From sequence record OR844765: a stretch of 64,000 nucleotides of DNA; one strand, 5' to 3'. The position numbers were made by a program, and so were the translations under genes. Of this stretch, positions 14,430-21,524 are shown in pieces. The stretch is from Escherichia phage ECO111 5-P. How positions within the stretch are numbered: position 1 is the first letter of the stretch; the number at the start of each line of letters is the position of its first letter. Below the pieces are notes generated by a model that ran no database searches, was not told the origin of the DNA, and worked only from the letters and a program-made list of their open reading frames with translations.

Positions 14430-17141
14430 ATGAAAGAATTTTACTTAACGGTTGAACAGATTGGTGATTCAATTTTTGAACGTTACATCGATTCTAATGG
14501 CCGTGAACGTACTCGTGAAGTAGAATATAAACCATCACTGTTTGCTCATTGTCCAGAAAGTCAGGCTACGAAATATTTCGATATCTACGGTAAGCCGTGT
14601 ACTCGTAAGTTGTTCGCTAATATGCGTGATGCCTCCCAATGGATTAAACGCATGGAAGATATCGGACTTGAAGCACTTGGCATGGACGATTTCAAATTGG
14701 CGTATTTGTCTGACACTTATAACTATGAAATCAAATACGACCATACAAAAATTCGTGTGGCTAACTTCGACATCGAAGTAACATCTCCGGACGGGTTCCC
14801 TGAGCCGTCACAAGCAAAACATCCGATTGATGCTATCACCCATTATGACTCAATTGACGACAGGTTCTACGTATTTGATCTATTGAATTCTCCGTATGGT
14901 AATGTAGAAGAATGGTCTATCGAAATTGCAGCTAAGCTTCAAGAACAAGGTGGTGATGAAGTTCCATCCGAAATTATCGACAAAATCGTTTATATGCCGT
15001 TTGATAATGAAAAAGAATTATTGATGGAATATCTCAACTTCTGGCAACAGAAAACTCCTGTCATTTTGACTGGATGGAACGTTGAGTCATTTGATATTCC
15101 ATATGTGTATAACCGAATCAAGAATATTTTTGGCGAATCTACTGCGAAACGTTTATCACCACATCGTAAAACTCGTGTTAAAGTTATCGAAAACATGTAT
15201 GGTTCTCGTGAAATCATTACATTGTTCGGTATCTCTGTTCTTGATTACATTGACCTTTACAAAAAATTCTCTTTTACTAATCAACCGTCGTATTCTCTGG
15301 ATTACATTTCAGAATTTGAATTGAACGTTGGTAAACTGAAATATGACGGCCCTATTTCTAAGCTTCGTGAAAGCAATCACCAACGATATATTTCTTATAA
15401 CATTATCGACGTGTATCGTGTATTGCAAATTGATGCTAAGCGTCAGTTCATCAACTTGAGTTTGGACATGGGTTATTATGCTAAGATACAGATTCAATCT
15501 GTGTTTAGCCCAATTAAAACATGGGATGCTATTATTTTTAATAGCCTTAAAGAGCAGAACAAGGTGATTCCACAAGGTCGTTCTCACCCGGTTCAACCTT
15601 ATCCTGGCGCTTTTGTTAAGGAACCTATTCCAAATCGATACAAATATGTAATGAGTTTCGACCTTACATCTCTGTATCCAAGTATTATTCGCCAAGTGAA
15701 TATTAGCCCAGAAACAATAGCAGGAACGTTTAAAGTAGCTCCATTGCATGATTATATCAACGCTGTTGCTGAACGTCCTTCAGATGTGTACAGTTGCTCT
15801 CCTAACGGCATGATGTATTATAAAGACCGTGATGGTGTAGTTCCAACTGAAATCACTAAAGTCTTTAATCAACGTAAAGAACATAAAGGTTACATGCTTG
15901 CAGCTCAACGTAATGGTGAAATAATTAAAGAGGCATTGCATAATCCTAATCTTTCTGTTGACGAACCATTAGATGTTGATTATCGTTTCGACTTCAGTGA
16001 TGAGATTAAAGAAAAGATTAAAAAGTTGTCTGCTAAATCTCTTAATGAAATGTTGTTTAGAGCTCAACGTACTGAAGTTGCAGGTATGACTGCACAGATT
16101 AACCGTAAATTGCTTATCAACTCACTTTATGGTGCACTTGGCAACGTTTGGTTCCGTTATTATGATTTGCGTAATGCTACTGCAATCACAACATTCGGGC
16201 AAATGGCTTTACAGTGGATTGAACGTAAAGTTAATGAATACCTGAATGAAGTTTGTGGTACAGAAGGCGAAGCTTTCGTTCTTTATGGTGATACAGACTC
16301 TATTTACGTATCTGCTGATAAAATTATCGATAAGGTTGGTGAATCTAAATTCCGTGATACTAACCATTGGGTAGACTTCTTAGATAAGTTTGCACGTGAA
16401 CGTATGGAACCAGCTATTGATAGAGGTTTCCGTGAAATGTGTGAATACATGAACAATAAACAACATTTGATGTTCATGGACCGAGAAGCTATCGCTGGTC
16501 CTCCGCTCGGTTCTAAAGGTATTGGTGGATTCTGGACTGGTAAGAAACGTTATGCATTAAACGTGTGGGATATGGAAGGAACTAGATACGCTGAACCTAA
16601 GCTTAAAATCATGGGTCTCGAAACACAGAAATCTTCAACCCCTAAAGCAGTACAGAAAGCTCTTAAGGAATGTATTCGTCGTATGCTTCAAGAAGGCGAA
16701 GAATCATTACAAGAATATTTTAAAGAGTTTGAAAAAGAATTCCGTCAATTGAATTATATTAGCATCGCGTCGGTATCTTCTGCGAATAACATTGCTAAAT
16801 ATGACGTAGGTGGATTCCCTGGTCCCAAATGCCCGTTCCATATTCGTGGAATTCTGACGTATAACCGGGCTATCAAAGGTAATATCGATGCACCGCAAGT
16901 TGTAGAAGGTGAAAAAGTATATGTTCTGCCTTTACGTGAAGGAAACCCATTCGGTGATAAATGTATCGCATGGCCTTCTGGCACTGAAATCACAGATTTA
17001 ATTAAAGACGACGTACTTCATTGGATGGACTACACGGTTCTCCTTGAGAAGACATTTATTAAACCACTTGAAGGATTCACATCAGCAGCGAAACTCGATT
17101 ACGAGAAGAAAGCATCTCTGTTCGATATGTTCGATTTTTGA
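14430..17141 (+). CDS. 43: DNA polymerase gp43 (family B)
   Basis: 903 aa; exonuclease motif FDIE; polymerase motifs SLYPS, KILINSLYGALG and YGDTDS; sequence matches my recollection of RB69 gp43. Confidence 0.97.
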   Translation: MKEFYLTVEQIGDSIFERYIDSNGRERTREVEYKPSLFAHCPESQATKYFDIYGKPCTRKLFANMRDASQWIKRMEDIGLEALGMDDFKLAYLSDTYNYEIKYDHTKIRVANFDIEVTSPDGFPEPSQAKHPIDAITHYDSIDDRFYVFDLLNSPYGNVEEWSIEIAAKLQEQGGDEVPSEIIDKIVYMPFDNEKELLMEYLNFWQQKTPVILTGWNVESFDIPYVYNRIKNIFGESTAKRLSPHRKTRVKVIENMYGSREIITLFGISVLDYIDLYKKFSFTNQPSYSLDYISEFELNVGKLKYDGPISKLRESNHQRYISYNIIDVYRVLQIDAKRQFINLSLDMGYYAKIQIQSVFSPIKTWDAIIFNSLKEQNKVIPQGRSHPVQPYPGAFVKEPIPNRYKYVMSFDLTSLYPSIIRQVNISPETIAGTFKVAPLHDYINAVAERPSDVYSCSPNGMMYYKDRDGVVPTEITKVFNQRKEHKGYMLAAQRNGEIIKEALHNPNLSVDEPLDVDYRFDFSDEIKEKIKKLSAKSLNEMLFRAQRTEVAGMTAQINRKLLINSLYGALGNVWFRYYDLRNATAITTFGQMALQWIERKVNEYLNEVCGTEGEAFVLYGDTDSIYVSADKIIDKVGESKFRDTNHWVDFLDKFARERMEPAIDRGFREMCEYMNNKQHLMFMDREAIAGPPLGSKGIGGFWTGKKRYALNVWDMEGTRYAEPKLKIMGLETQKSSTPKAVQKALKECIRRMLQEGEESLQEYFKEFEKEFRQLNYISIASVSSANNIAKYDVGGFPGPKCPFHIRGILTYNRAIKGNIDAPQVVEGEKVYVLPLREGNPFGDKCIAWPSGTEITDLIKDDVLHWMDYTVLLEKTFIKPLEGFTSAAKLDYEKKASLFDMFDF

Positions 17142-17149
17142 TATAATGT
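17141..17149 (+). promoter_or_regulatory. Extended -10 promoter element (TGATATAAT) upstream of the sugar-nucleotide cassette
   Basis: TGnTATAAT at the gene 43 stop, 33 nt upstream of ATG 17182. Confidence 0.35.
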
Positions 17150-17181
17150 CATGGACGGTAAACTAATTAAATGAGAGAAAT

Positions 17182-20070: not shown

Positions 20071-20127
20071 TAATTTAAGTAAGACCTGCAAAAACCATCG
20101 CATCAATTAACGTGAGATGCAAAAAAA

Positions 20128-21288
20128 ATGAATACTTTTAAAATCGGAACGAATTTTGATTTAGCTCTTCTTGATAAAATCGTAGAGCTCAATAAAACCT
20201 ATCCTAATAGCTTGATAAACGAAGTATATGGCTCTACAAGAGAAATGGCTTTTGTAGCAGCCAGACCTGATTTTAGGCTTCCTGACGTTGACAAAAAGAT
20301 GTTAGAAGACTACGTTAAACGTTGTAACGAATTAGGTATTTGCTTTAACTATACACTCAACACGATAAATCCTGGTTCAAAAAGAGAACTAGTTGAGTGG
20401 AAGAAGAAAGCTATTCAGGATTATGTTCAGTATCTTTGGTCAATAGGCGTATGGCGTATTACTATCGCTAACCCTGTTGTTATGGAAATTGTTCGTGAAG
20501 TCAATAAAGACATTGAGATTGAAGTTTCAACAATTCTACATGTCGATGCTGTAACTCAAATCAAATACTTGCATGACCAATATAATATCAAAAAGGTCTG
20601 CTGTGGAATTCATAAGAACCGTTCAGTTTCTTTCCTGAAGCGTGCAGCAGAGTTTTGTAATAAGAACAATATAATATTTGAAGTTCTTGTAAATGAGTTC
20701 TGTTCTAATGCTGGTAAAGGGTATACAACACATTGTAGCTATCGTGACTCTTGCTATATTTTCCATAGTACTGATGTTACAGCTGATGATGCTAAATCCT
20801 TAAACGGATATCCTATGCAGCACTGTATTAAAGCTCGTGATACAGACCCATTTAACTGGTTGAGAACTCGTTTTGTTCGTCCTCAAGATTTGAAACTTTA
20901 TAATGATATTGGTATCACTCAATTCAAAGTTTCAGGACGTACAGGTAGCACAGACTACATTTTGAAAGTTCTTGAAGCATACGCTTCTGAAAAGTTTGAA
21001 GGTAATTTGTTAGAACTGTGGAAGCCTTTAGAGACTATTTTCACTCTTGAAAATGAGACTGAGTTTTCACATACAGTAAATATTGAAACCTCTTTGTTAG
21101 ATGGCTTTTTAGAAAAAAGGTGGTTCAGACATCCAGATTTTGATTGTGCTAATGAAATCTGTGGGTCAACGTGTACATATTGTGAAAGGTATTATAAACG
21201 TCAATTATCTAAAAACGGGTTAGCAGAAAACTCCATATCTATTATTGATATAACTAACTCTGATGACGCTTTGAGGTACCCGGAATGA
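20128..21288 (+). CDS. Cysteine-rich protein, possibly peptidase-U32-family-like (Fe-S TIM-barrel)
   Basis: 386 aa; Cys clusters NEFCSNAG...HCSYRDSC and CANEICGSTCTYC; IANPVVMEIVRE and EVLVNEFC resemble U32 signature blocks; assignment is tentative. Confidence 0.5.
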   Translation: MNTFKIGTNFDLALLDKIVELNKTYPNSLINEVYGSTREMAFVAARPDFRLPDVDKKMLEDYVKRCNELGICFNYTLNTINPGSKRELVEWKKKAIQDYVQYLWSIGVWRITIANPVVMEIVREVNKDIEIEVSTILHVDAVTQIKYLHDQYNIKKVCCGIHKNRSVSFLKRAAEFCNKNNIIFEVLVNEFCSNAGKGYTTHCSYRDSCYIFHSTDVTADDAKSLNGYPMQHCIKARDTDPFNWLRTRFVRPQDLKLYNDIGITQFKVSGRTGSTDYILKVLEAYASEKFEGNLLELWKPLETIFTLENETEFSHTVNIETSLLDGFLEKRWFRHPDFDCANEICGSTCTYCERYYKRQLSKNGLAENSISIIDITNSDDALRYPE

Positions 21289-21524
21289 TTTCTAGAAAAA
21301 GTTTTAATTATAAACTTAACGAAGAGATTTTGACTATGAAACTGAACACTAACGAACAAATTCTTAAAAAGGCCCTTATGGGCCTGTTTGAAACCAAAGC
21401 GGCTAAAGTGATTAAAGAACCTGTTCAATTGGAATACTACACTGATGCATTCCTTCATAGTGTTCTTGGAAGTATAGATTCTGAAGCTTTACGTTATATC
21501 AACATTGCCAAGAAATTCAAATAA
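21285..21524 (+). CDS. Hypothetical protein (79 aa)
   Basis: ATGA overlap with upstream gene. Confidence 0.45.
   Translation: MISRKSFNYKLNEEILTMKLNTNEQILKKALMGLFETKAAKVIKEPVQLEYYTDAFLHSVLGSIDSEALRYINIAKKFK

Follow-up and report, generated by a model that had tools for sequence, protein, structure and literature searches.

A sugar-donor cluster for arabinosyl-5-hydroxycytosine DNA in Escherichia phage ECO111 5-P and a candidate prephenate-dependent hydroxylase of the U32 family within it

Between the gene of the DNA polymerase gp43 and a downstream gene of the ThyA family, Escherichia phage ECO111 5-P carries six open reading frames (ORFs) that raise two questions, namely what product they make together and why one of them encodes a protein of the U32 family. 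The window analysed here is a stretch of 64,000 nucleotides of this phage, a Mosigvirus (sequence record OR844765). An initial annotation, made from the sequence letters, had read the six ORFs as a cassette that could turn ribulose 5-phosphate, via arabinose 5-phosphate (Ara5P), into a nucleoside diphosphate-pentose donor for the cytosines of the phage DNA, which matches a pathway that has since been found in print (Thomas 2018, PMC6024577; Lee 2026, PMC13326640, citing He 2026 and Mahler 2025). Our results make it highly probable that the interval constitutes the donor-making half of the RB69-type cluster for cytosine hypermodification. Because the pathway account is already published, the cassette itself adds little; the new part is the comparative evidence on the U32 protein and on chorismate mutase, which suggests that this protein is, on balance, probably a prephenate-dependent, O2-independent C5 hydroxylase of cytosine deoxynucleotides or DNA.

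The cassette is an already published cluster, of which RB69 is the type example. Across 11 kb the window is 97.5% identical to RB69 at the nucleotide level, and its proteins are 97-100% identical to RB69 ORF045c-055c, with a 79-aa ORF (ORF049c, 90%) as the exception in a cluster that otherwise shows no substantive difference. The RB69 gp45-gp55, HY126 Afh and Bas46/47 Aat clusters hold the same genes in the same order as the window, which in RB69 and here is arabinose-5-phosphate isomerase, 47-aa peptide, kinase/nucleotidyltransferase, HAD phosphatase, U32 protein, 79-aa ORF, 5-hydroxy-dCMP synthase, arabinosyltransferase and kinase; a second arabinosyltransferase adjoins rIIA and the topoisomerase gene, again as in the RB69-type cluster. 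Profile assignments agreed across three libraries (Pfam, NCBIfam and PHROGs). ORF053c/052c and ORF047c/046c, which are split in the RB69 record AY303349, are single ORFs in the window (Table 1), in agreement with the published view that the RB69 splits are sequencing errors. Arabinose in RB69 DNA was reported in 2018 together with the demonstration that ORF053c and ORF052c are a single gene and the proposal that ORF055c and ORF53_52c make UDP-arabinose, so the pathway idea is not new (Thomas 2018, PMC6024577), and the BASEL collection labels the ortholog of the bifunctional enzyme 'putative enzyme involved in UDP-arabinose biosynthesis'. The RB69 base has been determined as beta-D-Araf-(1-3)-alpha-D-Araf-5-hydroxy-2'-deoxycytidine; in HY126, AfhE and AfhF turn Ara5P via arabinose 1,5-bisphosphate (Ara-1,5-bisphosphate) and arabinose 1-phosphate (Ara-1-P) into UDP-arabinose, and the DNA of Acinetobacter phage DLP3 also bears an arabinosyl modification (Lee 2026, PMC13326640). 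An independent study of Mosigvirus NP confirmed the arabinosyl-5-hydroxycytosine modification and called the earlier hydroxymethyl assignment erroneous. The assignment is tempered by the fact that the biochemistry comes from HY126, DLP3 and RB69 and is carried over to the phage of the window by comparison; no sequence evidence was found that contradicts the core pathway.

A 386-aa Cys-rich protein had been counted, with no family named, among the sugar enzymes in the initial annotation. The protein is indeed rich in cysteine, but it is an Fe-S protein of the U32 family with no obvious role in sugar activation. It matched Peptidase_U32 at 42.2 bits against a gathering cutoff of 22.4, its AlphaFold2 (AF2) model (pLDDT 93) has a TIM-barrel fold, and the top Foldseek match of the model in the PDB was the U32 protein 5d88 (E=9.6e-8, TMt 0.69); by sequence, neither the protein nor its family profile had a meaningful match in the PDB. 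Identity to UbiU, UbiV, TrhP and RlhA is 17-22%. Nine cysteines, including C340-X4-C345-X3-C349-X2-C352, are invariant in 72 homologs (47-85% identity), which is enough for two clusters. By tblastn the phage U32 protein was present in 221 records, all with at least 80% identity, from phages of Escherichia, Shigella, Klebsiella, Serratia, Proteus, Yersinia, Enterobacter, Providencia, Edwardsiella, Pectobacterium and Shewanella, and the bifunctional kinase/nucleotidyltransferase was present in 373 records, including 57 from Acinetobacter phages, none of which carried U32 (0/57). Acinetobacter hosts are strict aerobes. Acinetobacter phage DLP1 and E. coli phage JS98 both have the cluster with the same hydroxylase signature and without U32, and a strict correlation between U32 and the oxygen lifestyle of the host was only partly upheld, since Acinetobacter phages lack the gene but E. 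coli Dhakaviruses lack it too. Across genera of the Straboviridae the U32 proteins remain at least 80% identical, compared with 42-72% for the bifunctional enzyme and 69-80% for the ThyA-like hydroxylase; the high conservation of U32 could be due to strong constraint or to recent spread.

Outside Mosigvirus the U32 gene has a recurrent neighbour. A chorismate mutase gene (CM_2) follows U32 in 9/9 other genera inspected (Winklervirus, Kanagawavirus with two phages, Marfavirus, Mosugukvirus, Tegunavirus, Bragavirus, Kagamiyamavirus and Shewanella phage Thanatos-2), in most cases overlapping it by 4 nt. The CM_2 scores run from 33 to 47 bits, where the cutoff is 27; none of the six catalytic residues of AroQ varies, and the chorismate mutase 1ybz is the best match in the PDB. 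Homologs of this phage enzyme occur in 51 records of the phage collection, and all 51 stand in the U32 context; even in Thanatos-2, where the two genes lie elsewhere in the cluster, they are still paired. Mosigvirus, the window included, and one Klebsiella phage type are without the mutase gene.

The coupling extends beyond the Straboviridae. A distant U32 family (40-58% identity) is found on phage-like or viral contigs, the longest of 466 kb, in the midst of genes for dNMP metabolism and DNA polymerase, and 47 viral-contig loci were compared, 15 from Straboviridae and 32 distant, the latter with flanks of 6 kb inspected on each side. Chorismate mutase comes after U32 in 13 of the 15 Straboviridae loci, and a ThyA-like gene is present in all 15; no ThyA-like hydroxylase was seen within 6 kb of U32 in any of the 32 distant loci. 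Most of the latter (23/32) have a homolog of arabinosyltransferase 1, which often overlaps the U32 start, and the kinase/nucleotidyltransferase and the SIS protein appear in 16 and nine of them, respectively. Chorismate mutase or 3-deoxy-D-arabino-heptulosonate 7-phosphate (DAHP) synthase stands beside U32 in 12/32, as a stand-alone mutase directly after it (six loci), a DAHP synthase-chorismate mutase fusion (five, Table 1) or a DAHP synthase (one). With such a fusion the phage brings its own enzyme for the entry step and for the branch-point step on the way to prephenate. These DAHP-synthase-like neighbours were also considered as 3-deoxy-D-manno-octulosonate 8-phosphate (KDO8P) synthases, which would have linked them to Ara5P, and the idea was rejected because DAHP synthase models score far better and most of the proteins have a fused CM_2 domain. 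In uncultured large phages that have no ThyA-like gene within 6 kb, U32 may be the sole hydroxylase.

Two further observations were made on the uncultured phages. Of six metagenomic phage contexts inspected, three have radical SAM/SPASM genes near the U32 homolog (L016 1-249, L017 12160-13185 and L023 4972-6000), the second of which has a second, faint U32-like gene, and the combination possibly marks further anaerobic nucleotide-modification chemistry. Contig L022 (4777-13179) carries Gly_transf_sug, arabinosyltransferase-1-like, U32, TAGT-like glycosyltransferase, dUTPase/DCD and UDP-galactopyranose mutase genes, a block whose gene content points to DNA modified with galactofuranosyl-hydroxypyrimidine by way of a putative U32 hydroxylase.

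The proposed activity has precedents in the U32 family, whose members are Fe-S enzymes tied to O2-independent hydroxylation. UbiU and UbiV use prephenate as the oxygen donor, TrhP forms 5-hydroxyuridine (ho5U) in tRNA in a prephenate-dependent manner and is redundant with the O2-dependent TrhO, and RlhA is required for 5-hydroxycytidine at position 2501 (ho5C2501) of 23S rRNA. The phage protein shares with UbiU/UbiV, TrhP and RlhA the PF01136 domain, the TIM barrel, conserved cysteines of the Fe-S region, a link to prephenate supply, which is genetic for the E. coli enzymes and one of gene adjacency in the phages, and the presence of an O2-dependent partner for the same product. It differs from them in the missing second cysteine of the motif, an extra C-terminal four-Cys motif and a single chain of about 360-390 aa without U32_C or RNA-binding extensions, and its presumed substrate is a deoxynucleotide or DNA. 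We propose that U32 would give a second, anoxic route to the 5-hydroxy base with prephenate as co-substrate, that the Straboviridae of facultative anaerobes would thus carry both hydroxylation routes, a pairing parallel to TrhO/TrhP for tRNA ho5U and to UbiI/H/F and UbiU/V for ubiquinone, and that Mosigvirus would have lost the mutase, its prephenate presumably coming from host PheA and TyrA. No published paper linking a phage U32 protein to DNA hydroxylation was found, in a coverage that excluded He (2026) and Mahler (2025), which may already assign or exclude a role.

Several points weigh against such a hydroxylase. The canonical CX6CX15CX3/4C motif is incomplete, with C192, C203 and C209 standing for the first, third and fourth cysteines, the second replaced by glycine and the loop shortened; UbiV also uses a variant Cys motif, and the other invariant cysteines C158, C233 and C340/345/349/352 could be substitute ligands. 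In E. coli Dhakaviruses (JS98) the cluster and the hydroxylase signature occur without U32, so that U32 is not obligatory in enteric phages. The window itself is without chorismate mutase, and the view of the distant contigs covers just 6 kb on each side of the gene. In air, the ThyA-like enzyme alone suffices for 5-hydroxydeoxycytidine (5-hydroxy-dC) in E. coli DNA, and gp50 is listed as a 'sugar or heterocycle reductase' from its fold match to 5d88 in a paper whose discussion names the RNA hydroxylation by RlhA and TrhP without tying it to gp50 (Lee 2026, PMC13326640).

That published label, together with the place of the gene amid sugar-activation genes and a TIM barrel common to many sugar enzymes, would fit a U32 protein that acts on a sugar or a nucleotide sugar, as a reductase or ring-form isomerase, in donor synthesis. 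Yet the three-enzyme route from Ara5P needs no extra step, the Acinetobacter phages and JS98 have the sugar genes without U32, and DLP3 DNA is arabinosylated (Lee 2026, PMC13326640). Sugar chemistry offers no reason why U32 should be coupled time and again to chorismate mutase or DAHP synthase, and the characterised U32 members are all tied to hydroxylation, so we consider a sugar substrate unlikely. Distinctly unlikely is a U32 protein that hydroxylates phage or host tRNA or rRNA in the manner of TrhP and RlhA, unrelated to DNA modification. RNAs are the only known pyrimidine substrates of U32 enzymes and Straboviridae do carry tRNA genes, but the phage protein has neither the TrhP nor the RlhA C-terminal extension, and in unrelated phages it sits in clusters of DNA glycosyltransferase and dNMP-metabolism genes with no ThyA-like hydroxylase nearby.

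The base that receives the sugar was one point at which the initial annotation failed, as the adjoining gene had been called gene 42, a dCMP hydroxymethylase, and the sugar had been placed on hydroxymethylcytosine. The neighbouring protein indeed belongs to the ThyA/gp42 superfamily, and arabinosyl-hydroxymethylcytosine was the published view in 2018 (Thomas 2018, PMC6024577). However, the protein is 99.2% identical to RB69 ORF048c, it is essentially identical to PDB 9iqc (Table 1), and its HMRSQN...QLD motif, with Asn rather than Asp at the equivalent of position 169, is the D169N/N177D signature, all of which mark it as a flavin- and O2-dependent 5-hydroxy-dCMP synthase; RB69 gp48 carries flavin, uses O2 and puts 5-hydroxy-dC into E. 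coli DNA in vivo, and nuclear magnetic resonance and mass spectrometry of the RB69 and Mosigvirus NP bases gave a direct sugar-O-C5 bond, with no methylene (Lee 2026, PMC13326640; Mosigvirus NP study). The acceptor in these phages is thus 5-hydroxycytosine, ether-linked at C5, and is predicted to be the same in the window, for which arabinosyl-hydroxymethylcytosine, already refuted for RB69 by structure determination, is very improbable. By analogy with close relatives, where both steps have been shown, the ThyA-like flavoenzyme would hydroxylate dCMP at C5 with O2, and after incorporation into DNA the arabinosyltransferases would place one or two arabinofuranoses on 5-hydroxycytosine. A role of the second arabinosyltransferase was proposed by both Thomas (2018, PMC6024577) and Lee (2026, PMC13326640).

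The T4 system of gp42 with alpha- and beta-glucosyltransferases occupies the same genome slot, with gene 43, a 42-like gene, a glycosyltransferase and uvsX, and follows the same logic, in which an enzyme of the ThyA family yields dCMP oxygenated at C5 and, once the DNA has been replicated, glycosyltransferases modify that base. T4, however, uses host UDP-glucose and needs no donor pathway, whereas the phage of the window has its own sugar-donor genes, and the T4 base is hydroxymethylcytosine made via folate, unlike the hydroxycytosine made via flavin and O2 in RB69-type phages. The T4 order is 43 - imm.1 - imm - 42 - beta-gt, so that imm.1 and imm stand, as had been correctly stated, at the slot of the sugar genes in the window. 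The cassette is absent from T4 and, by match counts, from other Tequatrovirus. A homolog of the superinfection-immunity protein Imm was found about 5 kb downstream of the cassette, at 28347-28550 on the + strand, with 51% identity to JS98 Imm over 72 aa; the T4 and JS98 copies lie in the 43-42 interval.

Among the donor enzymes, the SIS-domain protein had been likened to arabinose-5-phosphate isomerase, and profile matches sustain the comparison, with KpsF/GutQ/KdsD models at about 1e-30 to 1e-32 (NCBIfam KpsF/GutQ 8.9e-32 and KdsD 3.9e-30). Both lie under their equivalog cutoffs, the match reaching 105 bits against 505 and covering model positions 47-202 of 328, because the pair of CBS domains is missing and the protein ends at residue 211. 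The protein is 97.6% identical to RB69 ORF055c and 35% identical to residues 23-202 of E. coli KdsD, and it keeps the equivalents of K59, H88, E111, E152 and H193, which we take to be the KdsD active-site residues. Unlike KdsD and GutQ, with their tandem C-terminal CBS domains, it is a truncated, SIS-only form, for which isomerase activity is predicted.

The 561-aa protein had been described as an RmlA-like nucleotidyltransferase fused to an APH-like kinase. The first half of this description held, as the RmlA/MurU-type N-terminus matched NTP_transferase (PF00483) with 8.5e-10 and 39 bits against a cutoff of 21.2 (residues 3-99, covering the first ~100 model positions only), gave NCBIfam sugar-1-phosphate nucleotidyltransferase matches, and has an LGAGLATRL...IPK motif that fits the GxGxRL...PK nucleotide-binding signature. 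For the C-terminus, the Brenner motif HGDPNFSN (HxDxxxxN) and, for the downstream metal-binding Asp, an IDPRG motif are in place, but the kinase-family Pfam matches (residues 344-409) were weak, at 16-18 bits and below the cutoffs; structural matches to kinases have been reported for the bifunctional enzyme (Lee 2026, PMC13326640). The 561-aa protein matched phrog_4098 and is 99.5-99.7% identical to RB69 ORF053c and ORF052c. The next protein was rightly called a HAD-type phosphatase, since it has a DVDD motif and matched the capsule biosynthesis phosphatase TIGR01689 (4.3e-13), HAD-IIIA (0.026) and phrog_1238 (5e-43); its identity to RB69 ORF051c is 99.2%, and the RB69 annotation would place its start at window position 19684. 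The functions of the 561-aa and HAD enzymes were taken from the literature (PMC13326640). In the resulting scheme, the SIS protein would boost the supply of Ara5P from ribulose 5-phosphate, which host KdsD and GutQ can also provide; the C-terminal kinase domain of the 561-aa enzyme would phosphorylate Ara5P at C1, the HAD phosphatase would remove the 5-phosphate, and the N-terminal domain would convert arabinofuranose 1-phosphate and UTP into UDP-arabinofuranose, the last three steps having been shown in close relatives.

The HldE/GmhB pathway to ADP-heptose follows a shared four-step logic of kinase, bisphosphate, HAD phosphatase and nucleotidyltransferase; it likewise joins kinase and nucleotidyltransferase in one bifunctional protein, uses a small HAD phosphatase and is fed by a SIS isomerase. 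The pathway of the window differs in its pentose rather than heptose substrate, in a kinase that is APH/choline-kinase-like and not ribokinase-like, and in a UDP-furanose product destined for DNA. Structural matches of the phage phosphatase to heptose-1,7-bisphosphate phosphatase have been reported (Lee 2026, PMC13326640). That the cassette alters envelope sugars of the host (Kdo, capsule or lipopolysaccharide) instead of DNA has almost no probability: its best cellular profile matches are capsule and lipopolysaccharide enzymes, which the GenBank annotations ('KpsF/GutQ', 'capsule biosynthesis phosphatase', 'GlmU') follow, but in every case they go together with the genes of the dCMP hydroxylase and DNA arabinosyltransferases, and direct biochemistry of UDP-arabinofuranose synthesis and DNA arabinosylation has been published (PMC13326640).

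Two small ORFs, whose only profile matches are PHROGs without an assigned function, complete the interval. The 47-aa membrane peptide is present, as had been noted, but it is not specific to arabinose and its reading as a part of the sugar pathway was rejected, since homologs exist in T4 and in JS98, where the peptide lies beside imm in a cluster without the isomerase. It is an ancestral T-even membrane peptide and not a pathway component. Homologs were found in seven sampled relatives (JS98, LC53, PEi20, Entb_45, EcS1, PM2 and phiR1-RT), and the RB69 annotation notes its T4 similarity. In T4 an unannotated stretch of the 42-imm gap (NC_000866, about 26230-26319; L027 4231-4320, minus strand) matches the peptide at 60% identity across its 30 C-terminal residues, and looks like a conserved small T-even membrane protein absent from the T4 annotation. 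The 79-aa ORF had no Pfam match at E up to 10, CM_2 included, and no NCBIfam match, and its AF2 model (single-sequence) has three helices with low confidence. The possibility that it is a diverged chorismate mutase was rejected, because hhalign against the phage mutase profile gave a probability of 0.07%, the catalytic set R11/R28/K39/E52/S84/Q88 is absent, and in phiR1-RT and PM2 a homolog of the ORF stands between U32 and the true mutase.

As regards the layout of the locus, genes 44, 62 and regA precede the DNA polymerase gene (14430-17141) on the + strand, the six ORFs follow it, all co-oriented and all where they had been placed, and after them come the ThyA-family gene, a 299-aa ORF, a 182-aa kinase-like ORF and uvsX. 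The five internal junctions of the six ORFs measure -4, +41, -16, +57 and -4 nt; three of the five overlap, which makes the earlier wording 'mostly translationally coupled' a fair one, and the gaps of 41 and 57 nt carry sequences like that of Shine and Dalgarno. Against RB69, the ratio of nonsynonymous to synonymous substitutions (dN/dS) was lowest in the N-terminal half of the bifunctional gene (0.015), stood at 0.05-0.06 in the SIS, 47-aa, HAD and U32 genes and reached 0.17 in the 79-aa ORF, low values which indicate that the measured genes are under purifying selection. By megablast, cassette DNA was found in 198 phage records, in 152 of them at full length. The composition and G+C profile did not indicate a foreign island at the cassette. 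A scan of 16900-24000 for sigma-70 promoters and terminators gave counts no higher than in shuffled sequence and was therefore uninformative. In sister genera an extra ORF of 138-175 aa lies between the polymerase and isomerase genes, and in Serratia LC53, Edwardsiella PEi20 and Yersinia phiR1-RT a seg-type homing endonuclease gene separates the HAD phosphatase and U32 genes; the window has neither.

Table 1. Features of the cluster in the window and of related loci (positions preceded by L and a number refer to comparison loci)
Feature	Location	Strand	Evidence and remarks
SIS-only arabinose-5-phosphate isomerase, predicted (RB69 gp55), 211 aa	17182..17817	+	Pfam SIS PF01380 9.6e-10; phrog_5670 2.6e-116
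Two-helix membrane peptide (RB69 ORF054c), 47 aa	17814..17957	+	phrog_3610; dN/dS 0.06
Bifunctional Ara5P 1-kinase (C-terminal) and UDP-arabinofuranose pyrophosphorylase (N-terminal) (RB69 gp52:53), 561 aa	17999..19684	+	HY126 AfhE counterpart
HAD-family phosphatase (RB69 gp51), 133 aa	19669..20070	+	HY126 AfhF counterpart; Ara-1,5-bisphosphate to Ara-1-P
U32-family Fe-S protein (RB69 gp50), 386 aa	20128..21288	+	Peptidase_U32 PF01136 7.3e-11
Helical ORF (RB69 gp49), 79 aa	21285..21524	+	Overlaps U32 stop by 4 nt; phrog_8601
ThyA-family 5-hydroxy-dCMP synthase (RB69 gp48)	21567..22283	+	PDB 9iqc/9ir2/9iqu E=1e-160
DNA arabinosyltransferase 1, one ORF (RB69 gp46:47), 299 aa	22283..23182	+	phrog_3891; 99-100% to RB69 ORF047c + ORF046c; role from PMC13326640
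Thymidylate-kinase-like nucleotide kinase (RB69 gp45), 182 aa	23183..23731	+	phrog_761 5.7e-45; 98.9% to RB69 ORF045c
Second DNA arabinosyltransferase, outside the cassette (RB69 ORF003c homolog)	44591..45688	+	tblastn 97.3% over 366 aa
Extra ORF of sister genera	L001 2088-2507; L002 2547-3074; L007 1493-2020; L008 983-1492; L012 1671-2087		LC53 copy annotated with signal peptide
seg-type homing endonuclease	L001 5352-5990; L008 4352-4990; L009 4352-4990		
Fused DAHP synthase-chorismate mutase next to U32	L053 4411-5433; L056 4321-5376; L057 4332-5387; L067 7079-8197; L054 9-971		Viral contigs

The cassette explains the source of UDP-arabinofuranose, a sugar donor that the host does not make, for an arabinosyl modification that stops type II restriction as well as the Brig1 glycosylase and some CRISPR-Cas systems. 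The known hydroxylase of the cluster needs O2, yet the enteric bacteria that these phages infect live in habitats largely without oxygen, and the phages break down dCTP as T-even phages generally do; a prephenate-fed, O2-independent hydroxylase, if U32 is one, would resolve this oxygen paradox. Prephenate, newly recognised as an oxygen donor for quinones and RNA, would then serve DNA precursors as well. The protein would be the first of its family with a hydroxylase role in DNA metabolism, 5-hydroxypyrimidine DNA would have arisen a second time by convergence, and the U32 field would gain the soluble enzyme with a small substrate that it lacks for assay in vitro. If the proposal holds, a large group of uncultured phages would be flagged as carriers of glycosylated hydroxypyrimidine DNA, and phages of gut and sediment would gain an anaerobic route to 5-hydroxycytosine beside the ThyA-like flavoenzyme.

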